64,000 bases of DNA from Gammaproteobacteria bacterium. GTDB lineage: Bacteria > Pseudomonadota > Gammaproteobacteria > DSM-16500. Below, one piece after another: positions 2,790 through 40,467 of the stretch. Within the stretch, counting starts at the first letter, position 1. Every line of letters starts with the position of its first letter. Where the stretch lies: assembly GCA_013286085.1 (NCBI GenBank), contig JABDGK010000003.1, positions 19,115 through 83,114 of the forward strand, read 5' to 3'. A model generated the notes under the pieces. The model did no database searches. It worked only from the letters and a program-made list of their open reading frames with translations, and had not been told where the DNA came from. The position numbers and the translations under genes were made by a program.

Positions 2790-2931
2790 TCGTCCTGAAA
2801 AACCTTACGCTCACTATTTTTTAACGAAGCCAATGTGCTATCACGTAAGGTTTATTCAGGATCCATGAGCGGAGAGTATAACGTTCAAGATAATCTACTA
2901 TTAATACTGAGCTGTTAGAAATCAAAAGAAG
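2790..2931 (+). repeat. Structured dispersed repeat family B, copy 1
   Basis: 142 bp, 3 mismatches to 4999-5140; nested hairpin tcctga-aaaaccttacg-loop-cgtaaggttt-attcagga. Confidence 0.95.
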
Positions 2932-3025
2932 AAAAATCATGCCGACCATCTATACTTACATTATGTCGAACAAAAGAGAATAAGAGTGTGGCCTGACACT
3001 CTTATTCTTTATCGATTGCCAAGAA

Positions 3026-3757
3026 TTACATGACGTTGGCGTGAGGCTTTTGTTGCAACACTTGACTACTACGCAATTCAAGATATCGATAAGTTGTAGA
3101 GATTGCATGATTTAAACGTCTCATAAAAGAACCGTTGTGATCTATATTAGATAGGTTAAATCTCATTTGAGATAAATAATCCAACGTTTCTTCAATGGAT
3201 TTTTCTTTGATTTGTTCAACTAAAGATTTAGCTTCACTAATATGGTGCCTACCCCAGTGCCCCTTCCAAAAGCAATTTGAATGATAGTCTTTAAAAAGCT
3301 TGGTAATGTTTTGATGGAAAGTTTTATCATCTTGGCATTGAGTTGATAATAGATCATGATAAGAATAGGGGGGATTTAATAGATTCATAGGCTTTCCACT
3401 ATTCAAGCTATACTCGTAAATCCGTTGATTCAACTCTATAACATTATTGCGATTAGTTTTTAGCGTACAGTGACTTGGATTTTCTTGAGCTATTTTATTC
3501 TTATCATCCAAAATTAATATTGATGAAAAAAGAAAAACCCAAGTAGGGTTAGGCGCTTTGTATTGGGTTTTTAGATAGTTTATATAACTGTCTACTGCCG
3601 CCTGTGAGTCAAGCAATATTAGATTAGAATAATTCAAACCTACATAACGGTCTATGTAGTAAGATCCGTTAAAAGTACTAGAATAGAGCCTAGGGCCTAC
3701 TGCTGAAGAAGATGATCTAACACCAGCAAACGCATAATATTTTCTCACTGAAGACAT
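3026..3757 (-). CDS. DUF5617 (RavJ C-terminal-like) domain protein, putative Dot/Icm effector
   Basis: LFKDY...FWKGHWGRHH...GSFMRRL resembles the Legionellales DUF5617 signature; GAGG RBS upstream. Confidence 0.7.
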   Translation of the reverse strand: MSSVRKYYAFAGVRSSSSAVGPRLYSSTFNGSYYIDRYVGLNYSNLILLDSQAAVDSYINYLKTQYKAPNPTWVFLFSSILILDDKNKIAQENPSHCTLKTNRNNVIELNQRIYEYSLNSGKPMNLLNPPYSYHDLLSTQCQDDKTFHQNITKLFKDYHSNCFWKGHWGRHHISEAKSLVEQIKEKSIEETLDYLSQMRFNLSNIDHNGSFMRRLNHAISTTYRYLELRSSQVLQQKPHANVM

Positions 3758-3804
3758 AGGTTACCTCGTGTGTAATTAAATTTTATTTATGAATGTCGAC
3801 ATAG

Positions 3805-3850
3805 ATAGTACACAATAAGCGCTGACAATATGATGACAGAATCATTACAA
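3805..3850 (-). promoter_or_regulatory. Pho-box-like triple direct repeat plus -10 box upstream of the DUF5617 gene
   Basis: Minus strand TTGTAAT-gatt-CTGTCAT-cata-TTGTCAG (11-bp period), then 11 bp, then TACTAT. Confidence 0.6.
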
Positions 3851-3872
3851 TTTTGCAGGGGTGAGTAACAGA

Positions 3873-4013
3873 GTAAGCGTATGGAGAACTGCTTTTCTCC
3901 ATATGCTTACGTTTCCGCTCATAGATCCTGAATAAACATTCCGCCTCAGAAGAATTGTTTCGCTAAAAAATGTGGGCGGAATATTTTTCAGGACGACGAA
4001 GCGGGTGGGTTTA
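3873..4013 (-). repeat. Divergent inverted copy of repeat family B plus an adjacent long hairpin (3873-3910)
   Basis: Minus strand reads taaacccacccgcttcgtcgtcctgaaaaatattccgc-loop-gcggaatgtttattcaggatctatgagcgga; same scaffold, different inner stem. Confidence 0.85.
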
Positions 4014-4180
4014 TTACGTAGTTTTAATGGGAACTGACACTCTTATTCTTTAACAACGGTGTCCGCATCATTTACTAATATAGCAAGTATAGCAGTTTTT
4101 CGAAGAATAAAAGTGTCAGTCCTTTTATTCCTCTTATTTCTATTTTGTAATTTACTGATATATATTGTAATTCCTCCCAT

Positions 4181-4212
4181 CTTAAGCACTTTTCAAGTGC
4201 ATGGTATATACT
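4181..4212 (+). promoter_or_regulatory. Possible PmrA-type box with -10 element
   Basis: cTTAAgcac-tt-tTCAAgtgc (11-bp period) then TATACT; degenerate match to the Legionellales PmrA consensus. Confidence 0.3.
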
Positions 4213-4246
4213 TATTTAAGAATCGCTTAAACCCCAGGAGGTTGAT

Positions 4247-4936
4247 ATGTCAAACAGTGCGCGAAAAACGATAGATAAACTATCTAGTGAAGAGCTAAGC
4301 GATAGTATAAATTCAGCATTTAATATTATCGAGACAAAAAAAAATGCGTTACAGGATAATGAAAAAAGTATCATTGATACTTTTGTGCAAAGCTGCCGCA
4401 CGCAAGTAAAAAACAATAAAGACAATAAAAAAGACGCCATAGCAGCCATAATGGGAAATATTCGTGCAATAAGAGACGAGGTGACTGCCAAAATAATAGA
4501 TAATAATACTTCTTCATCTAAATCCAAACAGGCTGGATTGGTTATTAGAGATCAGTTACACGAATTACTAACTTATTATGGAGAAGGATATCGACGACTG
4601 CAAAGTCAAAAACAGGCATCGGAAATGCAGAAATTGCCTGTGCCTGAGAAGTTAGAAAAGGCTATGACAAAGGTGCTGAATCAATGTATGTTCGCTGATG
4701 GAGAGACAACCAAGGCGATTGCACTCCATCTCAATAATATCAGAAAATACTATAGGGAAGGTTCGCAAAATGAATTAACTCATGAAATTAATAGCTTAAA
4801 ACAGTATGTTGAATTATGTACGCCGGGTCTTAAATTTAATGCGGCAGGTGCTAAAGAGGGGATGAAAAACGTGGTTGCAGATTTAGAAAAAGAACTCAGT
4901 CTTACATTACAACACAAACCACCAACACCGATGTAA
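4247..4936 (+). CDS. Helical/coiled-coil hypothetical protein, effector-like orphan
   Basis: 229 aa, strong AGGAGG RBS, no recognisable motif. Confidence 0.7.
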   Translation: MSNSARKTIDKLSSEELSDSINSAFNIIETKKNALQDNEKSIIDTFVQSCRTQVKNNKDNKKDAIAAIMGNIRAIRDEVTAKIIDNNTSSSKSKQAGLVIRDQLHELLTYYGEGYRRLQSQKQASEMQKLPVPEKLEKAMTKVLNQCMFADGETTKAIALHLNNIRKYYREGSQNELTHEINSLKQYVELCTPGLKFNAAGAKEGMKNVVADLEKELSLTLQHKPPTPM

Positions 4937-4981
4937 TTGGCGGAACGTTTACTTAACGTGTATAAGTTTAATCTTGATCTG

Positions 4982-5149
4982 TAAATCTCCCCACTTCATC
5001 GTCCTGAAAAACCTTACGCGCACTATTTTTTAACGAAGCCAATGCGCTATCACGTAAGGTTTATTCAGGATCCATGAGCGGAGAATATAACGTTCAAGAT
5101 AATCTACTATTAATACTGAGCTGTTAGAAATCAAAAGAAGGAGTTAAAT
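4982..5149 (+). repeat. Structured dispersed repeat family B, copy 2 (longest)
   Basis: Direct repeat of 2790-2931; ends shared with the 22776-22900 copy. Confidence 0.95.
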
Positions 5150-5153
5150 ATTG

Positions 5154-5933
5154 TCAATTCCATTTATTCCTTACTTCAATTAAAACCTTATCAAAATCAC
5201 TCACTTTAATTTTACCCATGCGAGGATATTCTAAATTAATGATAAGGAATATAGTGACAGAAGTTATCAATACGTAGCTAAATATATAAAGATTGGTGTC
5301 TGCCTTTTTCTCTGCTGTACTATAACCAGATAAGAAAGAGCCTAACGTAGCCAGTGCTAATAACAAACAAAAAATAACGAGCGGCGGATGAACTCTTGTC
5401 ATTTGATAACCGCCATCCGCAGCATCAAACATGGCATATACGCCGGGAATTACAAGAGAGGTCACGGTATCGTTATGCGTGGCTTCAGTGGCGGCGATAA
5501 CTTGACTCCACAACATCCGCTTAATGTTATCTGAATTTTTTAGTTGATCGCTAAGAGATGGTCCACCGATGGCAACGAGTTTATAAACTAACAAACGTGA
5601 ATCCAGATAATGTTTGAAAGTATCTCGTAAATCAGCTTGAGTGCGTGTTGTTAATAGATTAATCCCCAAGTACGCTGTTTGATATGCGTTGGCTTCGTCT
5701 ATAATATGAATTTTTCTTGTTTGAAACCTATCGTAGGCACCTGAGAACGTGAAGGCAATCAGTAATCCTAATAAAGCAAAAACGGCACCTTCGGCAACAC
5801 CAATAATTCCTAATTCATTTTCTTTTTGCCGACTTATTTTCCATTTACCGATCCGGCGACCTATAAAAGAACTACATAAAAGCAAAATAAAGACTGCCAA
5901 ATAAAACCAGTAAGAAGTGATTATCTTAATCAT
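5154..5933 (-). CDS. DUF4239/bestrophin-like membrane protein
   Basis: LLGLLIAFTFSGAYDRF..EANA and LEYPRMG motifs; about 4 TM segments. Confidence 0.75.
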   Translation of the reverse strand: MIKIITSYWFYLAVFILLLCSSFIGRRIGKWKISRQKENELGIIGVAEGAVFALLGLLIAFTFSGAYDRFQTRKIHIIDEANAYQTAYLGINLLTTRTQADLRDTFKHYLDSRLLVYKLVAIGGPSLSDQLKNSDNIKRMLWSQVIAATEATHNDTVTSLVIPGVYAMFDAADGGYQMTRVHPPLVIFCLLLALATLGSFLSGYSTAEKKADTNLYIFSYVLITSVTIFLIINLEYPRMGKIKVSDFDKVLIEVRNKWN

Positions 5934-6116
5934 CGGTATAAGACCCCAAAAAAAACCTGAGTTGCAGTAGAATCATATCAAAATTTAATACGCTATTCAT
6001 GCCATCTTCTAACATTAGGTGTTTTCCCTAATGCTAAAATTATTTACTTTCATCTATCATATTAATCTAACGAGTTTACTCATTATTTCTTCTATATTCC
6101 TGGAGGATGGACCATC

Positions 6117-6584
6117 ATGAAACAAACAATAGCCAAGTTAACGCTCATTGCTTTAGTTATTAGCTTAACAGCTTGTTCCACGAATACACGCGACCAAAAT
6201 ACCGCTGCAGGCGCAGGCACTGGCGCAGTTGTCGGTGGAGTAGTTGGTGCTTTGGCGCACGCAGGCAGTGGTTGGGTTATCGCAGCAGGCGCAATAGTGG
6301 GTGCCTTAGTTGGTGGTGTGATTGGTCACTCCATGGATAGCACTGACAATAGTCATATGAATACAGCGATGGATAAAAATTCAATTAATGCACCATCACA
6401 TTGGACAAATGATAAAACCGGCATTTGGTATAAAATAGTGCCGACTAGTGGTGTAATGGCTTATAAAGGTAGCACATATTGCCGTCATTATGTGGCATAC
6501 GGAAAATCCCACCATGGTAAAACTATGAAGACAAGAGGCATTGCTTGCCGCTCAGCAGATGGCATGTGGCAACAAGTTCGGTAA
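6117..6584 (+). CDS. 17-kDa surface antigen-like glycine-zipper lipoprotein
   Basis: Lipobox LTAC, glycine zipper, YCRHY...ACRSADGMW C-terminus. Confidence 0.85.
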   Translation: MKQTIAKLTLIALVISLTACSTNTRDQNTAAGAGTGAVVGGVVGALAHAGSGWVIAAGAIVGALVGGVIGHSMDSTDNSHMNTAMDKNSINAPSHWTNDKTGIWYKIVPTSGVMAYKGSTYCRHYVAYGKSHHGKTMKTRGIACRSADGMWQQVR

Positions 6585-6586
6585 TC

Positions 6587-6670
6587 AAATGCCATTAAGT
6601 TAAGAACCGTAGGGTGAACACGCTGCGCTTTGTTCACCCTACGGTTCTTTTGACGTTTAACTTAATGGCA
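6587..6670. mobile_element. Miniature element with IS4-like inverted ends enclosing a GTAG-REP hairpin
   Basis: 14-bp IR tgccattaagttaa/ttaacttaatggca around gaaccgtagggtgaacacgctgcgctttgttcaccctacggttc. Confidence 0.6.
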
Positions 6671-6691
6671 GCGGCAGGTCTGGCCCCAATT

Positions 6692-7099
6692 TCATTCAAT
6701 CATCTTTTTTGATTTTAGCCAATCCAAAATAATTACGGTGACAGGTGAACACTGTATTTTATCTTTGTGATTTAACCAGGTCACTTCTTCAATTTCAGCA
6801 TTCGCTTGTATCTCTCCCGTAAATTCTGCGAAATAACAGGTAATTTTTACCGGCATCCCATCCGGTTTGTCATGCGCTTGTGCTTTGAAAGTTTCGACAT
6901 ACTCAATTGTTGATGGCAAGAGATCAACAGAAATCTCTTCTTTAATTTCTCGGATAAGCGCTTCGTGATCGTTTTCGCCTGTATCTCTTTTTCCACCTGG
7001 AATGTAATAGATATCTTTTCCCTTTGAGCGCGCGCCAAGAAGTTGCTTATTCTTAATATATAACCATGCTAGCTTATCGATTTCATTCATTGGAGCCAT
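6692..7099 (-). CDS. NUDIX hydrolase
   Basis: Nudix box GGKRDTGENDHEALIREIKEEIS. Confidence 0.9.
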   Translation of the reverse strand: MAPMNEIDKLAWLYIKNKQLLGARSKGKDIYYIPGGKRDTGENDHEALIREIKEEISVDLLPSTIEYVETFKAQAHDKPDGMPVKITCYFAEFTGEIQANAEIEEVTWLNHKDKIQCSPVTVIILDWLKSKKMIE

Positions 7100-7226
7100 G
7101 CCTTCTAATTAAAGTGCAATATTATCCCATAAACCAGTATAATTTACTTTTATTTATCAAGGTGTGTGCTATTATTGTCCGGAATTTTGCTTTACCTGAA
7201 TCATAGACCACTCGAGGAGATATATA

Positions 7227-7682
7227 ATGATAAAAAACAATAAATTAATTCCGATCATGGGGTTATCCGTTTTAATGATAGCAACAACCGTACACGCTGC
7301 TGCAGATAATTTTAATTGTCCCCAACCATCACAAATTCAATCAACCGATTTTACAGCACCTTCTGTTTGGATCGCACCACCGGTTGCACATTCAGCTCCA
7401 CATGAAGTTGGCGCGGGATTGGGCGGCAGAAAAGTGAAAGAATTCATTGGTGCTGAAGCGGCTGAAGTGAATCATAAACAAGGTTGGGTATGTGTTTATA
7501 AATCAGAAGGTGGTATATCTGTTCATGAGTACCAAGCGAGAATTAGACAGATCGCAGAATCCAATCACTATTTAAGAAAATATTTAGCCAAAGTAAATAA
7601 AGCATTTAATGATGCAGAACCTTACTTGAAAAAATATCCGCAAGATGAAGCGATTGGTTTTGTGGGTTACCAAAGTAGATAG
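7227..7682 (+). CDS. Secreted hypothetical protein
   Basis: Signal peptide ending VHA; Cys pair; GAGGAG RBS. Confidence 0.75.
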   Translation: MIKNNKLIPIMGLSVLMIATTVHAAADNFNCPQPSQIQSTDFTAPSVWIAPPVAHSAPHEVGAGLGGRKVKEFIGAEAAEVNHKQGWVCVYKSEGGISVHEYQARIRQIAESNHYLRKYLAKVNKAFNDAEPYLKKYPQDEAIGFVGYQSR

Positions 7683-7696
7683 AATGTTTATCACCT

Positions 7697-7730
7697 CTGT
7701 CATGCCAGCATGCTTTTAGCTGGCATCCAG
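7697..7730. repeat. REP-like palindrome (gtcat...atcca type)
   Basis: ctgtcatgccagcatgcttttagctggcatccag. Confidence 0.6.
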
Positions 7731-7753
7731 AACTAGTTACAAGGAAATAATGC

Positions 7754-9772
7754 ATGACCACCCAGAACCCATTTATTCATTCCTCAGCAAAAATGCCCGA
7801 AATTACCTTGAGAGGTTTAATCTTAGCGCTATTTTTAATTGTCACACTAACAGCTGCAAATGCCTATTTAGGTTTAAAACTGGGAACAACAATTTCTGCA
7901 TCAATCCCTGCTGCAATTGCTGCAATGGGTATCCTGGGTTTATTTAAAAATTCAAATGTACTCGAAAATAATATCGTACAAACGGCCGCATCAGCAGGTG
8001 AGTCGGTTATTTCAGGTGTCGCTTTCATTTTACCGGCAATGCTGATAACGCACTGTTGGACGCAGTTTAATTATTGGGAAACTGTTTATATCTGCATGAT
8101 TGGTGGCATCATCGGGGTAATTGTTTCCATTCCATTGCGACGTATTTTACTGACCGATACACATTTACGATTTCCCGAAGCCACTGCTATTGGGCATGTG
8201 TTAATTGCAGGATCAAGTGAAAAATCAGGCTTAAAATATTTAGTGGGCGGTGCATTAGTCGGTGGTTTAATTAGTCTTGCACAAGCTGGATTTAAAATCT
8301 TTAAAGACACAATCATGCTTTGGTATGGCACATCACAACAAGTTGTTTACGGTTGTGCGATTGGATTTGATCCCGCATTATTGGCCGCAGGCTATATTGT
8401 TGGCGAGAGTGTTGCTGTTAGCACATTGGTAGGTGTCATCATCGGCTGGGGAGTCGGTATTCCTTTGTTGAGTCATTTGCATCATGGTGAAGCTCTCGGC
8501 AGTACACCGACTGATATTGCTTACACGTTATGGAATCATTATATACGCTATATTGGTCTTGGTACCATGCTAGTGGGTGGACTTTGGATCTTATTAAATT
8601 TATTTAAGCCGCTTTGGCATGCTTGCAAGGCATCAATTGACTCGTTAAAAACATTTCGACAAGCGGGTAAGCATCAAATCGATCGTCTTGAGCAAGATAT
8701 CCCATTGCATTTCTCTGCATTATGCATGCTGTTAGTTTCCATTCCGTTATGTTTTTTAATTTTTCATTATGCGAATGCGCCTCAATTAGGGCTTTCGTTG
8801 TCATTAAAAATAGTAACCATGGTTGTTGTGACGTTATTTGTATTGATTGTTGGTTTTATTTTATCAGCATTGAGTGGTTATTTTTCCGGATTAATTGGTT
8901 ATACCAATAGCCCAGGATCAGCATTGATTTTAATTTCAGTGATTATGATAGCTTTTATCACACTGGCATTGTTCGGCTTAGAAATTCATTTTAATTCACA
9001 ACAAGTTCTCTATGCAGAAGCTTTTGTTATTCTTGTGGCATGCATTATTGCCACACTGAACTCACTGACCGGTGAAACGATTCAAGATTTAAAAGTCGGT
9101 CAAATTGTGGGGACAACACCTTGGAAACAACAGGTCATGTTGATCTTGGGTGTGATCGTGTCGTCTTTTATTATTCCTTGGATTTTTCAATTGTTATTTG
9201 ATGCGTATGGCATGGGTGGTGTTTTTCCACGGCCCGGTATGAATCCATCCGAAATGCTTTCTGCACCTCAAGCAGCGTTAGCGAGTGCCTTAGTGCAGGC
9301 AACTTTTAATCATCAATTACCTTGGGACATGATGACGATTGGCGGTGTGATTGCTGTTGTCGGTCTTATCATCGATCATAAATTGCGAGAAAGAAATATG
9401 AGCTTGCCCGTGCTCGCTATTGGTTTAGGAATTTATTTGCCTGTTGAAGTGAGCGCGCCCATGATTTTAGGTGGCTTAATGCATTTAGTCATTGGAAAAA
9501 TCGCACAATCAAAAATAAGTGATGTAACTCTATTGAAAGAACGTAAGCAACGCGGTTTAATTTTGGCGTGTGGCATAGTCGCAGGCGCTGCCTTAATGGG
9601 TGTGTTACTTGCGATTCCATTCACGATTTCACACTCAACGGAAATATTAAAACTGGTGGGTGATAACTTCGATTTTTACGCGAGCCTTTTGAGTTTTGTT
9701 TCGCTTTTTGGATTGATGTTTTGGTTTTATTGGGTGGTTGCGGGTGGCATAAAACTTCTAATAAAAGCTTAA
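7754..9772 (+). CDS. OPT-family oligopeptide transporter
   Basis: EITLR, ANAYLGLKLG, LENNIVQTAASAGE, QDLKVGQIVGTTPWKQQ, APQA motifs. Confidence 0.92.
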   Translation: MTTQNPFIHSSAKMPEITLRGLILALFLIVTLTAANAYLGLKLGTTISASIPAAIAAMGILGLFKNSNVLENNIVQTAASAGESVISGVAFILPAMLITHCWTQFNYWETVYICMIGGIIGVIVSIPLRRILLTDTHLRFPEATAIGHVLIAGSSEKSGLKYLVGGALVGGLISLAQAGFKIFKDTIMLWYGTSQQVVYGCAIGFDPALLAAGYIVGESVAVSTLVGVIIGWGVGIPLLSHLHHGEALGSTPTDIAYTLWNHYIRYIGLGTMLVGGLWILLNLFKPLWHACKASIDSLKTFRQAGKHQIDRLEQDIPLHFSALCMLLVSIPLCFLIFHYANAPQLGLSLSLKIVTMVVVTLFVLIVGFILSALSGYFSGLIGYTNSPGSALILISVIMIAFITLALFGLEIHFNSQQVLYAEAFVILVACIIATLNSLTGETIQDLKVGQIVGTTPWKQQVMLILGVIVSSFIIPWIFQLLFDAYGMGGVFPRPGMNPSEMLSAPQAALASALVQATFNHQLPWDMMTIGGVIAVVGLIIDHKLRERNMSLPVLAIGLGIYLPVEVSAPMILGGLMHLVIGKIAQSKISDVTLLKERKQRGLILACGIVAGAALMGVLLAIPFTISHSTEILKLVGDNFDFYASLLSFVSLFGLMFWFYWVVAGGIKLLIKA

Positions 9773-9822
9773 TAATATAGATATCGTATAGTAAGAAGAT
9801 TAAGTTCAGATTAAATATCAAA

Positions 9823-9889
9823 CATCCCTGGCGCGTCGTCCACAGGACTTCTGAGTATAACTGAGCTATCACGGCGCGCGATCCGGGAT
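9823..9889 (+). repeat. REP-like hairpin with a 31-nt CCAC-initiated loop
   Basis: catccctg-gcgcgtcgt-[31 nt starting ccac]-acggcgcgc-gatccgggat. Confidence 0.7.
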
Positions 9890-10178
9890 AGCGGCATTGA
9901 GAAGACCACATTCGGGTTTTCTTTATCCGAGGCTTTTGAGAAGTGACATTAATAAATCCCATCTTTTTGATTTATATAAAAAACCACTTACACGGCTTTG
10001 TCGCGGCGTTGTTGCATAAGTCGTGCCCCCATCCGCGTTTTTTTGTGGGGAGGATAATTTGATTGATGCAACAGCCTCTCTATCCACAAGTTTCTGTTGT
10101 TTTCATATCTTAATCCCGTAAAATCTGTTACAATTCTGCACAATTTTGCAAAAAAATAACCATGAAATAGGAATAATC

Positions 10179-12028: not shown

Positions 12029-12367
12029 TACCGAGCCGCGCGCGTCAGCACATACCTTTATACACAAGTTAAAGAAGAACTGTCACCCCGCAAAAATTTC
12101 GTCCACAATAAGATTGAGAAAAATGCTGTTTCACGAAATTTTGTGCGGGGCCTGGTGAATAACCTTGGGGTGGAGCGTCTTTTTTTCAAAATTTGCACCG
12201 GGCCCCGCACAAAAACGCGAATTGGATTTTGTTTCCTTTTCACAAAAAGTGGCGCGTTTTTTGCGGGGTGACAGTTCTTCTTTAACTTGTGTATAAAGGT
12301 ATGCGCGTCAGCAAGCGTCACTGGACTGAACGTCTTGTGACGCTTGCTGACGCACGCGGCTCGGTAA
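12029..12367. repeat. REP doublet (gagccgcgcgcgtcagcaagcg family) interrupted by a MITE
   Basis: Removing 12051-12313 restores a doublet homologous to 44955-45027. Confidence 0.9.
12051..12303. mobile_element. MITE-like element 1 (253 bp) with four-arm core
   Basis: Perfect 46-bp IR catacctttatacacaagttaaagaagaactgtcaccccgcaaaaa; 10-bp TSD cgcgtcagca at 12041-12050 and 12304-12313. Confidence 0.92.
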
Positions 12368-13027: not shown

Positions 13028-13113
<86 letters not shown>

Positions 13114-20095: not shown

Positions 20096-20171
20096 GGGTG
20101 CTTAGCTCAGCTGGGAGAGCATCGCCCTTACAAGGCGAGGGTCGTGGGTTCGATCCCCTCAGCACCCACCA
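20096..20171 (+). tRNA. tRNA-Val(TAC)
   Basis: 76-nt cloverleaf, anticodon TAC, CCA. Confidence 0.97.
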
Positions 20172-20214
20172 TATTTAAGGATCTAGATACGTGATATATC
20201 TGGGTTTAGCTTCA

Positions 20215-20291
20215 GGAGTGGTAGTTCAGTTGGTTAGAATATCGGCCTGTCACGCCGAGGGTCGCGGGTTCGAGTCCCGTCCACTCCGCCA
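20215..20291 (+). tRNA. tRNA-Asp(GTC)
   Basis: 77-nt cloverleaf, anticodon GTC, CCA. Confidence 0.97.
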
Positions 20292-22331: not shown

Positions 22332-22778
22332 ATGATGAGTGGAATTCTAGTAATCACGCAAGCCATGGCCAGTCAAAATACAGTGGGAGTCGAGTATACT
22401 GAAAATGCGTTGCAAGAATTAAGCGATCAGTGTGAGCAATTAATTAGCGCAATTGCCAACCTAAATCAGTTAGAAGATGAATATGATGCGCATTTTGAAC
22501 AACCCCAACTATTTGAACAAAAGGCGAAAAAATTAAAGTTATTTGAGAGTGTTACTACACCATTACTGCCTGATTTGGGATTAAGAAAAAATATACAAAA
22601 AGAGAAAGAGCGACTACAAGAATTGCACTACAGTTTTTTATATGAATTGTGGGGGTTTCCTGAAGGCCTAAAAAAACATACCCAATATATTGCTGTAAAA
22701 AATAGATATAATGAAGAGATTGCCTATCACTTCCGCGCGGAAGAATCCCATGTGGTAACAGCTAATAAGCTAAGATAA
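22332..22778 (+). CDS. Helical hypothetical protein
   Basis: 148-aa ORF filling the gap; no motif recognised. Confidence 0.6.
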   Translation: MMSGILVITQAMASQNTVGVEYTENALQELSDQCEQLISAIANLNQLEDEYDAHFEQPQLFEQKAKKLKLFESVTTPLLPDLGLRKNIQKEKERLQELHYSFLYELWGFPEGLKKHTQYIAVKNRYNEEIAYHFRAEESHVVTANKLR

Positions 22779-22900
22779 ACCTGCCCACTTCGTCGTCCTG
22801 AAAAACCTTACGCTCACCACATCCATAAGTGGAGAACACAACGTTCAAGATACGCTACTATTAATACTGCGCAGTTAGGAAGCCAAATAAGGCGTTAAAT
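22776..22900 (+). repeat. Internally deleted copy of repeat family B
   Basis: Left arm gtcgtcctgaaaaaccttacgctcac joined to atccataagtggaga..aacgttcaagata..ctactattaatactg..gttaaat. Confidence 0.88.
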
Positions 22901-27497: not shown

Positions 27498-28285
27498 ATA
27501 CGTTCACCTTGTAAGCGAGTCAGCTCATGCAGCAACTTAATTTGTAACTCAATCAATCCTGATTCGCTTGGATCACGCGGTGTGGGTGTTGTTAAATCAA
27601 GTGGTGCATGCACTATCGCAGGATGTCCGGACATAATATAAATTTCATCAGACAGTCTTAATGCTTCCAGAGGGTCGTGTGTAATCAGTAAAACCGTACG
27701 ATTTTTTAATAGTTCCGCCGCTAAGGTTTGTAATTTGTAGCGTGTAATCGTATCTAATGCAGAAAAGGGTTCATCCATTAAAACAATGGGTTTGTTTTCA
27801 AAAAGAGTCCGTGCCAGTGCCACACGTTGTTTCATGCCACCGGATAATTCATTTGGTAATAAATTAGTAGCGTGATTTAAACCGACCTGCTGAAGAATTA
27901 ATTCTGCTCGTTTTGTATCATCCGATGTTAATAAACCTCGCAAGCGTGCGCCAAGCAAAACATTATCACGTGCTGTTAACCAGGGTAGCAGTAAATCCGC
28001 CTGCGCCATGTAAGCAACTTGTGCTGATATTGCGATGTTATTATTACATGTTATTGCCGCACGAACTGTCGTGTTTTCTCGTTTTGCTATTTCGGGTGTA
28101 ATAAGATTCGCAATTAAACGCAGTAGCGTACTTTTCCCAATGCCGCTGGGACCCAGCAAGCTTGTGATTTTTCCGGCGGGTAATACAAAATTTAAATTAT
28201 CAAATAAAACAGTATCACGAAATGCAAGGAAAGCATGTTTGATATGAATCGAGGGTGCTATCAATTGGCTATTTAACATGGTCAC
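27494..28285 (-). CDS. thiZ: ABC ATPase (ThiZ-type)
   Basis: GPSGIGKST, LSGGMKQR, DEPFSALD; start may be ATG 28279. Confidence 0.85.
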   Translation of the reverse strand: MTMLNSQLIAPSIHIKHAFLAFRDTVLFDNLNFVLPAGKITSLLGPSGIGKSTLLRLIANLITPEIAKRENTTVRAAITCNNNIAISAQVAYMAQADLLLPWLTARDNVLLGARLRGLLTSDDTKRAELILQQVGLNHATNLLPNELSGGMKQRVALARTLFENKPIVLMDEPFSALDTITRYKLQTLAAELLKNRTVLLITHDPLEALRLSDEIYIMSGHPAIVHAPLDLTTPTPRDPSESGLIELQIKLLHELTRLQGERI

Positions 28286-28380
28286 TTCTACCTACGCCGG
28301 CATTATCCGGATCAGGTTGGTTGTAAAGGGTCGTTCTGAAATAAGAACCTCTCAGTCCCTGATGGGACTCCCCTGAGTGC
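28283..28380 (-). ncRNA. TPP riboswitch
   Basis: Minus strand ggggagtc..ctgagag..gaccc..aacctgatccggataatgccggcgtagg directly upstream of thiZXY. Confidence 0.95.
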
Positions 28381-28515
28381 AAGGGCAGACTATAGGAGTT
28401 TTAGGTTTTTTATGCAAGAGATTTGTTAATTTCACTCCTAACTTGCTCATTATAAATAAGAATAATTTTACTGAGCCAACAGAGTATACTTATAAGAATA
28501 ATAAAGGTAATTAAT

Positions 28516-31444: not shown

Positions 31445-31453
31445 AAATGTGAT

Positions 31454-32755: not shown

Positions 32756-32771
32756 GTTTTATACCCGTCCC

Positions 32772-32813
32772 AAGCTTGTCTTTCCCGCGAAGGCGGGAAA
32801 GACAAGCTTTTTT
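32772..32813. repeat. REP hairpin with T-tail
   Basis: aagcttgtctttcccgcgaaggcgggaaagacaagctttttt. Confidence 0.88.
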
Positions 32814-32887
32814 AATTTTCTTGCGATAATCAGCGCTGCGCGGAGTTTACCTCGTTATGCTTTTAAACGGGGTCCACCCTATGTTTC

Positions 32888-33784: not shown

Positions 33785-34781
33785 GTCGTAATTTCTCCCG
33801 TAGCGACTCAATGTAGTAACTTAGCTGGTAAACAGCCATGGCATATAAGTTACTTGGATTGTAACGCTTAATGACATCAAAATTATTTAAGCCAACCCAG
33901 TATTCTTGGCCGCGAGTGCCTTGTAACTGGATGACTTTCACTTTTTGGTTAGATGGAATTTTTGAATACGGATAAAGCCCATATTCAGCTAGCTCGTCTT
34001 GTGAAAGCAATTGTGATGGTTTGCTATTTAATAAAAATCGATATTGATTGCGCGAAACCATCGTTGGAATAACAACCGGTTGATTGGTTTTCCAGCCGTG
34101 TTTTTGATAATAATTAGCAATACTGCCAATAATGTCATATTCATTATTTGATAAATCAATGTGATTATTACCAGAAAAATTAACAGCATAGTGACGGTAA
34201 CTACTCGGCATAAACTGTGGTTGGCCAATCGCACCGGCATACGAGCCGCGCACTGTTTCTGGATTTAAATGTTGCTCTCGCGCTAACAGTAAAAACTCTT
34301 CCAGTTCAGTGCGGAAATAATTTGCTCGAGATGAATCGCTAAAAGCAATACTGGCGAGTGCATCGATAACAGGGTATTCACCCTTATTTTTTCCGTATTT
34401 GGTTTCAACGCCGATGGTTGCGACGATAATACTCGCCGGTACGCCATATATTTTTTCAGCGCGCTCTAATGCCTCTTGATGACGATCCCAAAACTCAACA
34501 CCTTGTCGAATATGCGATTCATTAATAAATACTAATTGGTAGGTTGACCACTGTTGTGCTTCGAGTGGTTTACGAATGCTTTGCATGATACGAGAACGGA
34601 TTTTTATAGTACTAAATAGTCTGACTAAATCAGTACGATTAAAATGGTGCTTCTGTACCATCTTATTTATAAAGCTTTGCACATCAGGTTGATTAACAAA
34701 CTGAGCATCTGCATTTGCTGTTGTTGCAAACAACAAGACAAATACGCCTAACCAAAATGATAGAATATAGTCCTTTAACAT
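33777..34781 (-). CDS. mltB: Lytic murein transglycosylase B
   Basis: IGVETKYG, GSYAGAIGQPQFMPSSY, RYNPSNLYAMAV. Confidence 0.95.
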   Translation of the reverse strand: MLKDYILSFWLGVFVLLFATTANADAQFVNQPDVQSFINKMVQKHHFNRTDLVRLFSTIKIRSRIMQSIRKPLEAQQWSTYQLVFINESHIRQGVEFWDRHQEALERAEKIYGVPASIIVATIGVETKYGKNKGEYPVIDALASIAFSDSSRANYFRTELEEFLLLAREQHLNPETVRGSYAGAIGQPQFMPSSYRHYAVNFSGNNHIDLSNNEYDIIGSIANYYQKHGWKTNQPVVIPTMVSRNQYRFLLNSKPSQLLSQDELAEYGLYPYSKIPSNQKVKVIQLQGTRGQEYWVGLNNFDVIKRYNPSNLYAMAVYQLSYYIESLREKLRHA

Positions 34782-34791
34782 GAGTGCTCTT

Positions 34792-35934
34792 TTATGTCGT
34801 TAATAATTTACGATGTGTTTGTATAGACATTAGGATACCGAAACTTGCCATCAACGTCACCATTGATGAACCGCCGTAGCTAATAAGTGGTAAAGGAATA
34901 CCCATCACTGGCAAAACTCCAGTCACCATGCCCATGTTGATAAAAAAAGACACAAAGAAAGTGATTGTTAAACTACCCGCTAATAACCGTGTAAAAGTAT
35001 CTTGAGCATTAATTGTGATAAATAAGCCCCGCATAACGATAGCCATAAATAGCACAATAAGAATAATACTCCCAATTAAACCAAATTCTTCACCGCAAGC
35101 AGCAAAAATAAAATCGGTTGAATGTTCAGGTAAAAAATGTAAATGGGATTGCGTGCCATTTAGCCATCCCTTACCAAATAAACCACCAGAACCGATGGCT
35201 ATTTTTGATTGAATAATATGATAGCCGGAACCAAGCGGATCTCGTTCTGGATTTAAAAAAGTAATAACGCGTTGGCGTTGATAATCATGTAAGAAAAACC
35301 AGAAAATCGGTGCGCCCACTCCCACAAGACCAAGAATGGAAGAAATAATCCACCAACTCAAACCCGCTAAAAATAATGTTGTCACACCAGAAATAACCAA
35401 GATGATGGCTGTACTTAAATCAGGTTGTTTTGCGGTAAGTAATGTGGGTATTAAAATAAGAATTGCAGAAAAAAAGACGGTTCTGAGATGTAAAGGCAAA
35501 TGAATTTTATGATAGTGCCAGGCTAATACCATCGGGATTGCTAGCTTCATTATTTCCGATGGTTGCAAATGCATGACACCCAGACTTAGCCAGCGTTGTG
35601 CACCTTTACCGGTATGTCCCATAATCAATACAGCACATAATAAAACGATGCCAATAATATAGATGATAGCCGCCCAGCGCTGATACGTAGTTGGTGGAAT
35701 TTGCGCAAAGATAAACATAACACCCAGCGCTAACCCAATATGCAAAGCTTGTTGCTCAACCACATTTAAATCGTTACTGCTCGTGCTGTATAAAATAATT
35801 AAACCTAAGCTCATCAAGAGTAGTAACGCGAAAAGTAGTGGAATATCAATATGAATACATTGCCAGATAGTACGGTATTGACTGCCATTATCGCGATTTT
35901 GTAATCGCTGTTTCATTGTATTAACTGAGAACAT
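34792..35934 (-). CDS. rodA: SEDS protein RodA
   Basis: GAQRW, QPSE, QPDL, LPEHSTDFIF, SYGGSS; follows mrdA. Confidence 0.96.
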   Translation of the reverse strand: MFSVNTMKQRLQNRDNGSQYRTIWQCIHIDIPLLFALLLLMSLGLIILYSTSSNDLNVVEQQALHIGLALGVMFIFAQIPPTTYQRWAAIIYIIGIVLLCAVLIMGHTGKGAQRWLSLGVMHLQPSEIMKLAIPMVLAWHYHKIHLPLHLRTVFFSAILILIPTLLTAKQPDLSTAIILVISGVTTLFLAGLSWWIISSILGLVGVGAPIFWFFLHDYQRQRVITFLNPERDPLGSGYHIIQSKIAIGSGGLFGKGWLNGTQSHLHFLPEHSTDFIFAACGEEFGLIGSIILIVLFMAIVMRGLFITINAQDTFTRLLAGSLTITFFVSFFINMGMVTGVLPVMGIPLPLISYGGSSMVTLMASFGILMSIQTHRKLLTT

Positions 35935-37861
35935 GCGGCTTTCCTGTGGTTTCTAACGGTTTAATATGATTGATGGCACTTTTTGTCGGTGTCGTTACGG
36001 GAGTCGGTGCTATATTGAGTATTTGTAATAAATAATAGTCCAGCACAGCACGGGCAATTTTCGTTGCTTCATTGCTATTTTCAACAACCACTGCAATAGC
36101 AATTTGTGGATTCTCAGCAGGAGCAAAAGCAATTAATAGATGGTTATCACGTAATCTTTCGGGAATATTTTCTTCATTGACTTGGCTGTTTTCATTTTCA
36201 TAATGTGTTTTTGAAAATGAATAAACTTGTGCAGTACCTGTTTTTGCAGCAACCGTGTAGGGCGCATGACTTAATTTAAATCCCGTTCCTTCGGAAGAAT
36301 TGACCACACCTTGCATACCGTTAATAACCATATTCCAAAAATTATTATTTACAATATCCACGTTATTAACGAGTGCTGGTTTTTGGGGTTTATACGATTT
36401 TCCAGGGTCTTGAGAGGCTAATAGTAGATAAGGCGTAAAATGTTTACCGCGGGTTGCTATCGTTGCAACACCACTCGCAAGCTGTAATGGTGTTACCTGC
36501 ATATAACCCTGGCCAATTCCCGAGTTGATGGTGTCCCCCTCATACCAAGCAACACCTTTCACTTTACGTTTCCAGCTAGGCGATGCCACTGTGCCGCCTA
36601 ATTCATCATCCAGATCAATTCCAGAGACGTCACCAAAACCAAATTCATTTAAAACATGATCAATGCGTTGGATACCCATTTTAGAAGCAAGATCAAAAAA
36701 ATACGTATCACACGATGTAATGATCGCGCGGTTAAGATTCACGATACCATGACCATGTCGACGCCAGTCATGAAATTTATGCGAGCTATTTTTGAGTTGA
36801 AACCAACCTGGATCATAGAGAGTAAAATTAGGTGTAGCGATACCTGAATTTAAACCTTCGAGAGCGAGAAAAGGTTTGATCGTTGAAGCCGGTGGATAAA
36901 GCCCACGTAACGCCCTATCATACAATGGACGATCTGGTGATGTTTGGAGTGCTTGAAAATCTTTTGAGCTAATGCCGGCAACAAATAAATTCGGATCATA
37001 ACCGGGTTGACTCACCATTGCTAATACTTGTCCTGTGCTTGGTTGGATGGCAACAACAGCACCACGATGGCCTTCTAGTGCTTTCTCAACAGCAATTTGG
37101 AGGCGACTATCTAATGTGAGATATAAATTTTTACCCGGAACAGGATGGATTTGATTTAAAACACGAACCGGTTCGCCACTCGCATCATTTTCAACTTGTT
37201 GATATCCTACTGTGCCGTGTAATTCATCTTCATAAAATTTTTCAATACCCAATTTACCAATATAGTTTGTTGCGCTGTAATTTGTCGCATCAATATCACC
37301 TAATTCATCAATATTGATTCGACCCACATAACCCAGCACATGACTCAAGCTTGCTTCAAAAGGATAGTGACGTATTAAACGTGCCTTGATAATAAAACCA
37401 GGGAAACGATAGGCATTCTCGGCAAATTTAGCGACATCCGATTCGGAAAGACGCATCTTTAAAGGGATTTCATCAAAACGGCGATGTTGTTTCAATTGCT
37501 TCTGAAATTGAACGATATCCGTATCATCAAGCGCAATAATTTTAGCAATTTCCGAGAGCGCTTTTAATAAGTTACCCGCTTTATACGGCGTTACATCCAA
37601 GCTAAAGACAGGGGTATTTTCTGCTAATAACATACCATTGCGATCGTAGATTAAACCACGTGTCGGCTCAACGGGAATAAGATCTAACGAATTTTTTTGT
37701 GACAGTGTTGTATAAAGTGTATGTTGAGAAATTTGTAAATACGCTAATCGAACGAATAACAATAAAATTAAAATAACCATGAAAATGAAAGCAATAATTG
37801 ATCGCTGGCTGATCAACTGAATTTCTTGTAGGTGATTTTTAATAGGGGTTTTTTTGTACAT
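35921..37861 (-). CDS. mrdA: Penicillin-binding protein 2
   Basis: RGLIYDRNG, STIK, SCD, KTGTAQ. Confidence 0.96.
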   Translation of the reverse strand: MYKKTPIKNHLQEIQLISQRSIIAFIFMVILILLLFVRLAYLQISQHTLYTTLSQKNSLDLIPVEPTRGLIYDRNGMLLAENTPVFSLDVTPYKAGNLLKALSEIAKIIALDDTDIVQFQKQLKQHRRFDEIPLKMRLSESDVAKFAENAYRFPGFIIKARLIRHYPFEASLSHVLGYVGRINIDELGDIDATNYSATNYIGKLGIEKFYEDELHGTVGYQQVENDASGEPVRVLNQIHPVPGKNLYLTLDSRLQIAVEKALEGHRGAVVAIQPSTGQVLAMVSQPGYDPNLFVAGISSKDFQALQTSPDRPLYDRALRGLYPPASTIKPFLALEGLNSGIATPNFTLYDPGWFQLKNSSHKFHDWRRHGHGIVNLNRAIITSCDTYFFDLASKMGIQRIDHVLNEFGFGDVSGIDLDDELGGTVASPSWKRKVKGVAWYEGDTINSGIGQGYMQVTPLQLASGVATIATRGKHFTPYLLLASQDPGKSYKPQKPALVNNVDIVNNNFWNMVINGMQGVVNSSEGTGFKLSHAPYTVAAKTGTAQVYSFSKTHYENENSQVNEENIPERLRDNHLLIAFAPAENPQIAIAVVVENSNEATKIARAVLDYYLLQILNIAPTPVTTPTKSAINHIKPLETTGKPHVLS

Positions 37862-37932
37862 TTTCTTTACCTAAACCTAACGGCCGGCCAGTGTACCTGG
37901 ATTGGGGGCGAACTTCCAGAAAGTAACCTGGC

Positions 37933-38018
37933 ATATTTGGTGGACACGCTGCGCTTTGTCCACCCTACTTACGATTCAAATTGTAGGGTGGACAAAGCGC
38001 AGCGTGTCCACCAAATAT
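37933..38018. repeat. GTAG-type REP doublet (GTAG ends facing inward)
   Basis: tatttggtggacacgctgcgctttgtccaccctac-spacer-gtagggtggacaaagcgcagcgtgtccaccaaata. Confidence 0.92.
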
Positions 38019-38027
38019 AATACAACC

Positions 38028-38588
38028 CTAGTTAAATTTATATCCAAGATTAAGTATCAACGGGACAGTAATACCGGAATTATGCGCACATAAACGCCCA
38101 TTCGAATAATGCAATGCACTCAAAGTCGCATAAAATCCTTTCTTTTTACCAAAGAGCGCGCCAATCCCCACTTCATCTTGGAAAGTGTAATGCATACCTA
38201 AATTTTGCGTGGAGAAGCGTGTACGATTCACATATGCGGGACCAATACTTGCTTCTAAATAGGGGGAGAAATGCTCGGTTTTTGTCAAATAGAAACGTAA
38301 AACGGGTGCCAGCGCATAAATATTAATAACAGCATTTGATTTAGCACCATGAGCCCACCAGTGGCCAACACCACCTGCAAAATATAAATTAAAGTGCCCC
38401 CAAATAAGGGATTCTGGTTGATACCAAGCAACAGCACGATAACCATGCACACCCGCAGGATCTTTGCTTTTTAATAAAATCGGTAGCGTGACACCAAATT
38501 GAAAAGCGGTTGCAAATGCAGTGGAAGATATGAATAACGAGCCAATAGCGGCACAAGCATAGCGATTAAATTTGTTCACAAGTGTCAT
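38028..38588 (-). CDS. pagL: Lipid A 3-O-deacylase PagL-like beta-barrel
   Basis: FQD, HYSNG..NSG motifs, signal peptide; start 38588 has AAGG RBS. Confidence 0.85.
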   Translation of the reverse strand: MTLVNKFNRYACAAIGSLFISSTAFATAFQFGVTLPILLKSKDPAGVHGYRAVAWYQPESLIWGHFNLYFAGGVGHWWAHGAKSNAVINIYALAPVLRFYLTKTEHFSPYLEASIGPAYVNRTRFSTQNLGMHYTFQDEVGIGALFGKKKGFYATLSALHYSNGRLCAHNSGITVPLILNLGYKFN

Positions 38589-38727
38589 CCTTAACACAAT
38601 GATTTTTATATAATAACACATAGAAATCGCATTGAAAATAATACCATCCTCTAGTTGAGCAAACACAGGAAACATTGACAAAAAAGCCTAAAAAGCGCAC
38701 ACTTCCCCCTCTTTTTTCGAGGCGCCC

Positions 38728-40176
38728 ATGGCTACTACCGCAAGAGGCTTTTTCAACTCCACAGCCCATAAAACCACTCTCTTACGCGCGCTTGCCAGCA
38801 CAGCCTCGATGTGGCCCAACTCGACAGAGTTGGCGAATGTTACCGATACGGACGACAGCAATGATAAAGGCATTAACTTAGCCTCGAAAGAAGCGGTCAT
38901 TGGGGTTAGCTGTATTGCTGTAAGCATGGTGCTTATCACCGCTTTTTTTTGTGCCTCCGCCAAAAGAAGAAACCAAAATAGCGAAAGCATTATTTCCGTT
39001 CACATTAAAAGAAATAATGCACACTCATGTGGAGATAGCATTGTCATTCAACAATTAAATGTTAGTCGTGATCTCTCCGAAGAGGAGCAACTTGCAATTG
39101 AAGCAATAGGGCTGCGACCTTTTCTACTAAAAGAAATTACCGCCGTCATCCAAGATAAATTCGCAAAGAATGAGACAATCCAAGCCGGTTTAGCCATCCA
39201 ACAAGTCATTAATGTGTTTCTTCCACAAAGTAAAACAACACATGATATGGGTCCGTATGATTTAATAGAAGATATCACTGTAAAATACAATCCCAGAAAA
39301 AATCGTTGTAATTTCTTTGCAACCATACTACCACCCTTAACGCAAACAACACTGTTATTTGAAACCCTATTTGGCGCAGTGCAAGACCTGGGTTCAATGC
39401 AATTATCTCCGAGTATTCTTCCTATCAGTAGATCGGCAAGTAATGATATTTCGATTTTCCAGATCGTGTTATCAACTGTGTTTGGGTTGGGCATGTTATA
39501 CATCAGTCCTGGTCAAGCGTTCATGGGTGATCTTGGTTCAAAAATAGATAGAAAATTAATTAATTTATTTACCTGTAGAAAAGAAAATACCCCCTCTGAG
39601 CCTGCAGCAGATATATCGAAAGCCGTGAAAATTAAAATTCGCTTAGCACAGGCAGCTTTAGCGCTCTTTGTTTTAAATAGTTTGTACGCAGCGGTGATTG
39701 GTGACTATCAATCAACAGTTTCACTCAACGACAGAATTAATGCGCTCGATGATTCACTCATTCCACCGTGGGCTGTATTATTTTGCTCTATGATGGAGTT
39801 TGGCTTGAATCAATTAAATGATCCTGTGATGCTTTTTAGTGAATTACTCATGGGGACAACGTTAATTTATGCTTATTTCAATAACAAACCAAAACCAAAA
39901 GCGATAGCACAGCTTGAAGAAATAAAAACAGATGCCATGAAAAAAGATATTGTCGAAAAAGACGATGAAACAGGAGAAGCAGCGATAATACCAACTCCAT
40001 CGACACCACCACCAACAAATGGATTGCAGACACTTGGAAAGTTTTCTCCGAAACGTACAACCACACCGCCTGCCAATTCAACGCCTCCTAAAATTAATTT
40101 AACTAGCCATCAAGAAGACCTACGTCAACCACTCTTGTCAACAGAAGAGAAAAAAACATCTCTTACCAAAAATTAA
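38728..40176 (+). CDS. Multi-pass membrane orphan with Pro/Thr-rich tail, effector-like
   Basis: 482 aa, several hydrophobic segments, low-complexity C-terminus; GAGG RBS. Confidence 0.65.
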   Translation: MATTARGFFNSTAHKTTLLRALASTASMWPNSTELANVTDTDDSNDKGINLASKEAVIGVSCIAVSMVLITAFFCASAKRRNQNSESIISVHIKRNNAHSCGDSIVIQQLNVSRDLSEEEQLAIEAIGLRPFLLKEITAVIQDKFAKNETIQAGLAIQQVINVFLPQSKTTHDMGPYDLIEDITVKYNPRKNRCNFFATILPPLTQTTLLFETLFGAVQDLGSMQLSPSILPISRSASNDISIFQIVLSTVFGLGMLYISPGQAFMGDLGSKIDRKLINLFTCRKENTPSEPAADISKAVKIKIRLAQAALALFVLNSLYAAVIGDYQSTVSLNDRINALDDSLIPPWAVLFCSMMEFGLNQLNDPVMLFSELLMGTTLIYAYFNNKPKPKAIAQLEEIKTDAMKKDIVEKDDETGEAAIIPTPSTPPPTNGLQTLGKFSPKRTTTPPANSTPPKINLTSHQEDLRQPLLSTEEKKTSLTKN

Positions 40177-40202
40177 CAACACCTGTCTTTCCCGCCTTCG
40201 CG

Positions 40203-40467
40203 CAGTAGTGTCCGGTTAATCTGTGCATAAGTAGAACTGTCACCCCGCAAAATTATCAGCCACAGTTTTAAGAAGGACACAGAATTCGTTCTGATAATTT
40301 GTGCGGGGCCTGGTTGACGAACTTAAGTGATACGCAGTTTCTCTTAAAATTTGCACCAGGCCCCGCACAAAAACGCGAATGAAGGTTTATTTTTCTTTTA
40401 AAGAGAAGTGGCGCGTTTTTTGCGGGGTGACAGTTCTACTTATGCACAGATTAACCGGGCACTACTG
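40203..40467. mobile_element. MITE-like element 2 (265 bp): same core as 12051-12303, different termini
   Basis: About 50-bp IR cagtagtg(t/c)ccggttaatctgtgcataagtagaactgtcaccccgcaaaa, one mismatch; 10-bp TSD cgccttcgcg at 40193-40202 and 40468-40477, inside a tgtctttcccgccttcgcgggaaagaca REP. Confidence 0.92.

Follow-up and report, generated by a model that had tools for sequence, protein, structure and literature searches.

Ssn nucleases are single-domain GIY-YIG enzymes of about 94 amino acids (aa) that bind an oriented hairpin repeat (the NTS, CGTCATTCCCGCGMAVGCGGGAATCYRG; generally called SRM) as single-stranded DNA only, and cut it a few bases upstream (Chenal et al., Nat Commun 2025, PMC11893778). 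The published SRMs are hairpins of 20-50 nt with loops of 0-5 nt, and an ssn gene typically has a copy of the repeat on either side (NTS-ssn-NTS; PMC11893778). SsnA comes from Neisseria meningitidis, and an Ssn still cuts when the two halves of its site lie on separate oligonucleotides, a property known as split-site cleavage (PMC11893778). Here, we describe eight long hairpins in a 64,000-nt stretch of a Gammaproteobacteria bacterium genome (contig JABDGK010000003.1, positions 19,115 to 83,114; hereafter the window). Their sequence and surroundings suggest that these hairpins are probably SRMs with an extended apex, forming the paired ends of small selfish elements that encode, or have lost, an Ssn-type nuclease. 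What is new, in an already known Ssn/SRM system, is an extended apex of strict geometry that is present on two different feet.

The genome under study (G000) is a 2.32-Mb draft assembly that is 73% complete, and C numbers denote its contigs. All eight hairpins of the original prediction were located at the expected positions and sorted into families A, B, and C, with spans given in the SRM sense (Table 1). Seven of them share one single-stranded DNA fold (z -3.3 to -5.4; 0-1 of 200 shuffles fold as well), in which a 7-bp lower stem (the foot) is followed by a 10-bp upper stem, with a single base left unpaired between them on the 3' side, and then by a loop of 29-34 nt, for a total of 72-80 nt. 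The exception is the hairpin at 9823, which was found in place but folds weakly, with 65 of 200 shuffles being equally good; it sits just after an OPT transporter gene, and its foot is similar to that of the TGTCATCCCGG..CCGGGATCC SRMs of relatives. The earlier description of stems whose pairing is kept while their sequence changes was borne out, but not the division into outer arms and a 9-12-bp inner stem, because the paired part is one 17-bp helix (7-bp foot, bulge, and 10 bp, of which 7 are variable). Likewise, what had been taken for three different REP (repetitive extragenic palindrome) scaffolds are three sequence variants of a single motif class, the SRM.

A motif search of the whole assembly showed that the hairpins occur as outward-facing inverted pairs rather than as scattered singles, with copies equally frequent on both strands. 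Family C (CTGTCA-CCCCGCA...TGCGGGG-CCTGG) forms 14 pairs, 12 of them about 118 bp apart, and a 102-aa reading frame lies inside two pairs (C2:18407-18937 and C9:56640-57171). In family A (CGTCGTC-CTGAA...TTCAGG-ATCCAT), the pair at C5:33340-33945 encloses a 95-aa reading frame; this intact gene is bracketed by the same hairpin type as that at 2787-2867, and siblings of the hairpin at 3920-3999 are present on C2, C5, C15, and C18. Both proteins match the Pfam GIY-YIG family (PF01541; 53.3 bits for the 102-aa and 45.5 bits for the 95-aa protein) and contain no other domain, and three of the five PF01541 matches in the genome are these small, hairpin-bracketed genes (C9:56776 and C2:18578 in family C; C5:33510 in family A). 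The same hairpin-gene-hairpin layout was found in the relatives G023, G070, G073, G051, and G042. The proteins have 1803 homologues of 56-181 aa, which, where named, are called "GIY-YIG nuclease family protein" or "putative endonuclease"; one is from Aquicella lusitana.

These units agree with the Ssn NTS/SRM system in that a GIY-YIG gene of 95-102 aa, in keeping with the about 90-100 aa of Ssn proteins, stands between two oriented hairpins, one on each side and inverted. The sequence frame is also shared: the window hairpins have GTC(A) before the palindrome and a C directly after it, within a (C/T)GTCA flank. Among 68 family-C sequences, the GTC of columns 4-6 never varies and C74 is kept in at least 90%, and 80 public copies carry GTCA(T/C) before and (A/G)(T/C)C(C/T)G after the palindrome; the family-A flanks are CGTCGTC before and TCCAT after. 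As in the published system, there are many intergenic copies without a gene, other genes are sometimes bracketed, and relatives in the same family have near-canonical NTS. The differences are the length of 72-80 nt instead of 20-50 nt, the replacement of the tip by a 10-bp upper stem, a bulge, and a loop of about 31 nt, the failure of the published degenerate search to find the sites, and the presence in some copies of outer arms and 10-bp duplications.

Homologues of the family-C protein occur in 48 of 86 genomes of the same family, and in these relatives they are flanked by outward-facing hairpins that start with (C/T)TGTCA and are of three kinds. The first kind is short and in many cases near-identical to the Neisseria NTS consensus (e.g., TGTCATTCCCGCGAAGGCGGGAATCCAT); the second is long and fully paired, of 63-69 nt (TGTCATCCCGGA-ATTTAGCG...CGCTTAAT-G-TCCGGGATCC); and the third is the long-looped form seen in the window. 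Near-canonical NTS stand beside homologues with 49-60% identity. The fully paired kind (L039, L041, L045, and L047; G025, G036, G048, and G042) has a bulged G after the foot and, above it, about 21 bp of apex closed by a 6-nt loop, and its total length is near that of the long-looped form. The idea that the hairpins are a protein-recognised, single-stranded nuclease substrate is the best reading; the linked gene encodes a small, putatively Ssn-type GIY-YIG protein.

Table 1. Hairpins and associated features in the window (positions are those of the window).
Feature	Position	Strand	Flanks and foot	Upper stem	Bulge and loop	Fold and remarks
Family-A long SRM, left end	2787-2867	+	5' TCGTCG, 3' TCCATG; foot TCCTGAA/TTCAGGA	AAACCTTACG/CGTAAGGTTT	bulged A 2854; 34-nt loop 2810-2843	DNA fold -13.4 kcal/mol, z -4.54
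ssn leader and truncated ssn start	2868-2983	+				ATG 2939, 14 codons (MPTIYTYIMSNKRE), then stop (2939-2983)
DUF5617 effector-like gene, 243 aa	3026-3757	-				PF18493, E 2.6e-09
Family-A long SRM, right end, A2 subtype	3920-3999	-		AAATATTCCGC/GCGGAATGTTT	CCAC-start loop, 29-31 nt (29 in computed fold; 31 in original prediction)	z -4.52
Family-A long SRM	4996-5076	+				z -4.93; 97% identity to 2787-2867
Family-B long hairpin, solo, degenerate	9823-9889	+	foot ATCCC(T)GG/CC(G)GGAT	CGCGTCGT/ACGGCGCG	31-nt loop	z -0.39; only copy in genome
Ca miniature element	12051-12303 (12041-12313 including duplications)					inserted in ACCGAGCCGCG-type REP
Ca target duplications, 10 bp	12041-12050 and 12304-12313					CGCGTCAGCA
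Family-C long SRM	12080-12155	+	5' CTGTCA, 3' CCTGG; foot CCCCGCA/TGCGGGG	AAAATTTCGT/ACGAAATTTT	bulged G 12143; 30-nt loop 12103-12132	z -5.37
Family-C long SRM, partner end	12199-12274	-		AAAAACGCG/CGCGTTTTT	33-nt loop	z -3.26
Ninth hairpin, family A, internally deleted after CCTTACGCTCAC	22790-22817					in third family-A left end, 22776-22900 (+), including ssn leader
Cb miniature element	40203-40467 (40193-40477 including duplications)					
Cb target duplications, 10 bp	40193-40202 and 40468-40477					CGCCTTCGCG
Family-C long SRM	40237-40313	+		AAATTATCAG/CTGATAATTT	31-nt loop	z -3.72
Family-C long SRM, partner end	40356-40433	-			34-nt loop	z -4.28

In the window, the family-A pair at 2787-2867 and 3920-3999 faces outward and holds a DUF5617 gene at the position of ssn. 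Behind the left hairpin lies a truncated ssn start, which was recognised by comparison with an intact copy (L004:1502-1789, MSTAYTYIMSNKKHGTLY...), so that the unit 2787-3999 looks like a case of cargo replacement between SRMs. The 80-nt ssn leader is repeated at 5070-5149 and 22821-22900; downstream of the hairpin at 4996-5076, the leader (5077-5149) is present without an ssn reading frame. The DUF5617 gene has its own terminator hairpin at 2977-3008.

To describe the stem, 68 distinct family-C hairpins from 14 Coxiellaceae-like genomes were aligned almost without gaps. In the 17-bp helix, 98.8% of the cells were paired; column shuffles gave 86.7%, and sliding the partner gave 31-66%. Changes on both sides occurred in eight of the 17 pairs (126 cells, against 27.8 in shuffles), and RNAalifold recovered the same helix and nothing within the loop. 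Variation is confined to the distal 7 bp and the loop; GTC, the foot, the bulged G, and the four A:T pairs that come first are invariant. Pairing in the apex is thus maintained by compensatory change. Wobble pairs made up only three of 1156 pair cells, and this near-absence of G-T wobble speaks for pairing as DNA, or for some process by which the two arms stay exactly complementary, and against an RNA structure. One hairpin in G081 (L100:264-341) is mispaired, its 5' arm (TTCTTGT) and 3' arm (ACGAAAA) belonging to different upper-stem types, and looks like a recombinant between two site subfamilies.

Family C was found in 14 of 86 genomes and seven of 21 genera. A wider scan of one genome per species in 185,579 species, with a pattern that allowed loops of 29-36 nt, returned 80 matches with the upper stem, all in Legionellales/Coxiellaceae records, and 26 matches from unrelated phyla without the upper stem, which is approximately the number expected by chance for the pattern. 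Family A is present in four genomes (G000, G042, G082, and G084); the pattern matches in G003 and G066 look like chance. In G042, a 2.4-Mb genome from another genus of the same family, 168 raw pattern matches, in which symmetric hairpins can match on both strands, correspond to about 150 true family-A hairpins (e.g., L103-L131). Many of these copies are arrayed in tandem as alternating pairs spaced about 125 bp apart, and one subtype has a fixed 2-nt mismatch in the upper stem of all copies.

The near-constant loop length noted earlier was upheld: public hairpins have loops of 29-34 nt, with 31 nt in 54 of 80. CCAC did not hold up as a fixed loop start, since CAAC is more common (24 of 80, against 14 for CCAC, eight for TCAA, and six for CAGA). 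A genome-wide descriptor search (stem of at least 8 bp abutting CCAC, loop of 28-36 nt) did yield 47 matches against 0-5 in shuffles, 27 of which belong to family C and one to family A; however, the remaining 19 come from a GGTGGACA REP that is unrelated and includes CCAC incidentally. A more generic search (stem of at least 9 bp, spacing of 28-36 nt) was swamped by unrelated REP doublets and was not specific. The loops vary between subfamilies, as had been described, but not within them: in this genome they are identical or nearly so per subfamily, with one loop in up to seven copies. In genome G070, variation among the loops is about that of the spacer separating the hairpins, and the stems are invariant. 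Across 50 distinct 31-nt loops, the conserved positions are C1, T10, A13, A15-18, G24, T28, and C31; the loop sequence otherwise drifts almost freely, save for these few positions and an A-rich centre. The loops are therefore diverged homologues of one ancestral sequence, not free spacers. Two observations together were to have counted against the original prediction; one, loops that are decayed homologues, was made, yet stem covariation is strong.

Taken together, the layout and the alignments suggest how such units could work. A pair of inverted sites with their feet outward brackets a unit of about 600 bp, and this unit encodes the nuclease, in which case it looks autonomous (C2, C9, and C5), has lost the gene (at 12.1 and 40.3 kb), or holds the DUF5617 cargo. 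The nuclease would read the conserved foot: a 7-bp lower stem with (C)TGTCA or CGTCGTC on its 5' side and YCYGG or TCCAT on its 3' side, together with the bulged base and the first A:T pairs. An apex of about 51 nt, comprising the distal 7 bp of the stem and a loop of about 31 nt, would have replaced the usual 4-5-nt tip. Its job may be structural, in that it would hold the two halves of the foot together and perhaps space a long inverted repeat so that it is tolerated in duplex DNA; it would carry no information.

Several points weigh against this reading. The window hairpins are not matched by the published search sequence, HGTCWYN(0-2)YYVSBRHN(0-5)WNVSBRGN(0-2)RNCYNB; its 5' half (TGTCACCCCGCAA) is all that family C matches, neither half is matched by family A or B, and where the search allows a loop of 0-5 nt, the hairpins have 45-49 nt. 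The Ssn-type class was assigned from Pfam PF01541 together with the hairpin layout, not from cd10448 of the Conserved Domain Database (CDD), which defines Ssn, and searches of the PDB and NCBIfam gave only weak, generic GIY-YIG matches (UPF0213 and a group I intron endonuclease, below the cut-off). Two miniature elements that contain family-C pairs, Ca and Cb, carry extra outer arms and 10-bp duplications, which a hydrolytic nuclease alone leaves unexplained. The conserved loop positions and loop length speak against an apex that is structural only, and the loop may thus have a function that a structural reading misses. Finally, the role as nuclease substrate is a prediction from sequence. Judged by the published definitions, the hairpins are SRMs in functional terms, being oriented repeats on either side of an Ssn-type gene, but they depart from the search sequence and from the size range of 20-50 nt with its short loop; we therefore class them as non-canonical. 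A short REP of this genome, TGTCTTTCCCGCGAAGGCGGGAATCTAT (eight copies), does match the published search sequence.

The apex, about 51 bases in place of the usual four-base tip (0-5-nt loop), has the same geometry on the different feet of families A and C, with 7 bp below and 10 bp above a 1-nt 3' bulge and a loop of about 31 nt at the end. When 35 Ssn-like proteins were placed on a maximum-likelihood tree, the long-looped sites fell to two separate clades (support 100/98 for A and 100/100 for C), whose genes they flank, and the starred branches force at least two changes. In the nearest relatives of each clade, a short tip sits on the same foot (for A, CGTCGTCCCGCG-CTTTAT-GCGCGGGATCC; for C, CACCCCGCA-CTTGT-TGCGGGG), and the family-A loops of G000 significantly resemble family-C loops of G023 (TTTAA-CGAAG..ATATGCTATC), with local scores of 15-16 compared with 9.2 +/- 1.3 (maximum 14) in shuffles. 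The apex, being found on two scaffolds that go with two Ssn clades, each with short-tipped sisters, therefore behaves like a cassette that the scaffolds share. This distribution fits either an exchange of the apex between site families or an ancestral apex that was lost several times. The suggestion that a small module replaces REP loops agrees well with these data, as relatives have the same feet with 4-5-nt loops and the apex is common to the scaffolds.

A stronger version, which we regard as unlikely, is that the apex is a transferable cassette that has moved between SRM families belonging to different Ssn clades, with pairs of nuclease sites inserting at, or growing from, single-stranded hairpin tips to give nested palindromes, and with the apex possibly bound by a second factor. 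The order of nesting may then be short SRM tip, outer arms, SRM pair, and apex cassette. If true, this would mean tip-targeted spread through single strands for an element with a hydrolytic nuclease.

It is also conceivable, although we give it little weight, that the apex of about 51 nt is a functional or selfish module with a partner of its own, either the site of a second protein or a tip-invading unit, whose size and loop positions are under selection rather than simply inherited. Such a module would account for similar loops and one geometry on two feet of two Ssn clades with short-tip sisters, for the predominance of 31-nt loops and the conserved loop positions, and for the way in which SRM pairs and miniature elements repeatedly lie exactly in the middle of longer palindromes. 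It is harder to reconcile with loops that vary within a genome about as much as non-hairpin spacer, with the lack of a consensus secondary structure in the loop (no consistent internal helix emerged from RNAalifold or from pairwise covariation among 50 loops), and with the fact that the module was not found outside SRM-like feet in this genome. Moreover, the few indels fit plain descent, and no second gene is linked.

The miniature elements Ca and Cb raise the question of how the copies move. Ca consists of 29-nt outer inverted arms and two inward long SRMs, and its seven copies each have their own 10-bp duplication. Cb has four copies; the arms of Ca and Cb are 29-34 nt long, and 10-bp direct duplications were present at every copy examined. 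For Cb, the centre of the duplication coincides with the 4-nt tip of a short SRM-like REP (GTCTTTCCCGC-CTTC-GCGGGAAAGAC), indicating that sites are nested in sites; this host REP (eight genome copies) fits the published SRM search sequence. With their units of 260-290 bp, terminal inverted repeats, target duplications, and insertion into REP hairpins, Ca and Cb resemble the miniature transposable elements with inverted repeats (MITEs) derived from insertion sequences (IS), such as the Coxiella QMITEs (PMC5896051). In contrast to these, a matching parent IS was not found, and the core of paired nuclease sites is common to elements with three different outer arms.

The hairpins might accordingly be structured subterminal repeats of ordinary MITEs, moved by a DDE transposase encoded elsewhere, with the GIY-YIG gene as a passenger; we consider this very unlikely, even though the arms and clean 10-bp duplications within REP hairpins are what it predicts. 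Because a hydrolytic GIY-YIG nuclease does not on its own account for a 10-bp duplication, another enzyme may move the Ca and Cb copies. However, no transposase-bearing parent with the Ca or Cb arms was found in G000, where the arms occur solely around the hairpin core, and the Ca arm, the only arm searched in relatives, was absent from all 85 related genomes; as the genome is only 73% complete, the absence of a parent is not proven. In addition, other genomes have the same hairpin pairs entirely without such arms, or at the exact centre of other palindromes, and the hairpins bracket GIY-YIG genes on two scaffolds in several genera.

Two candidates for a complete element were rejected. The apparent autonomous transposase element at C15:28520-31448 (2.9 kb) turned out to be a Ca copy broken up by an ISL3 insertion together with a fragment of a group II intron. 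The ISL3-family insertion has an 8-bp duplication (AAATTTTG) and carries a fragment of a group II intron reverse transcriptase; its junction with Ca recurs in a second soil metagenome (run X2), and the split copy shows transposon-rich surroundings, as a MITE origin would lead one to expect. A lone arm at C2:41112 is a truncated end beside type II/IV secretion genes. In contigs of two soil-metagenome DNA runs, the element was present (one identical half, from the second study) and a joined or excised form was not seen, which provides no evidence either way. A precise empty site could not be drawn, as congeners are about 75% identical and synteny stops at the stop codon of an ABC-F gene; at the corresponding locus, G077 lacks both the REP and the element.

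That the hairpins act as RNA (a small RNA, a terminator, or a processing site), or that their loops serve as guides or captured spacers, is scarcely credible and already largely refuted: stable intergenic hairpins, some right after genes like that at 9823, and a spacer-like loop size are set against the three wobble cells in 1156, the equal use of both strands in inverted pairs, the lack of T-tract terminators, of sigma-70-like sites in the loops (counts equal those in shuffles), and of any Rfam family at the hairpin sites, and loops that are mutually homologous, identical across many copies, and without a match of more than 14 nt elsewhere in their own genome (the best non-sibling match being 14 nt), so that the guide idea is not supported.

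Extended-apex SRMs can also be compared with two other hairpin systems. Like REP/REPIN-RAYT systems and bacterial interspersed mosaic elements (BIMEs), they are short, palindromic, intergenic inverted doublets associated with one small repeat-flanked gene, and action on a single-stranded DNA hairpin is presumed in both; unlike them, the enzyme is GIY-YIG and not Y1/HUH, and there is no GTAG-type head. The alternative of an HUH/Y1 transposase substrate was not upheld, since no RAYT gene is flanked by the long hairpin and the four Y1_Tnp genes of the genome (on C22, C16, C45, and C25) have no long hairpin within 1.2 kb. With integron attC sites, the hairpins share recognition as a folded single strand, a conserved foot, an extrahelical base, a variable apex, and a shape that is kept while the sequence changes. 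They differ from attC in lacking RYYYAAC/GTTRRRY core sites, in forming inverted pairs and not arrays of one orientation, and in being linked to a nuclease and not to a tyrosine recombinase.

Two other abundant REP families, GTAGGGTGGACAAAGCGCAGCGTGTCCACC and GTAGCCCGTATG..CGTAATACGGG, occur as inverted doublets across the window from 6607 to 61034, and the RAYT-like Y1_Tnp gene at C25:15033 has four GTAGGGTGGACAAAGCGCAGCGTGTCCACC REPs within 1.2 kb. Rfam also identified a thiamine pyrophosphate (TPP) riboswitch and three tRNA genes in the window (28271-28384 on the minus strand, 13029-13110, and 20096-20288), which are unrelated to the hairpins.

The finding reveals no new kind of system. It does mean that, owing to the 51-nt apical insertion, the published search for Ssn sites misses a whole class of sites in Coxiellaceae-like bacteria. 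Ssn nucleases, described in 2025, have been promoted as programmable cutters of single-stranded DNA, and the long-looped variants hint, as examples from nature, that the enzyme may recognise only the foot of the hairpin, which fits split-site cleavage and bears on enzyme engineering. The effector-like gene in the place of the nuclease echoes the Neisseria sites that bracket host-interaction genes, and such cargo suggests a route of gene turnover in intracellular Legionellales.

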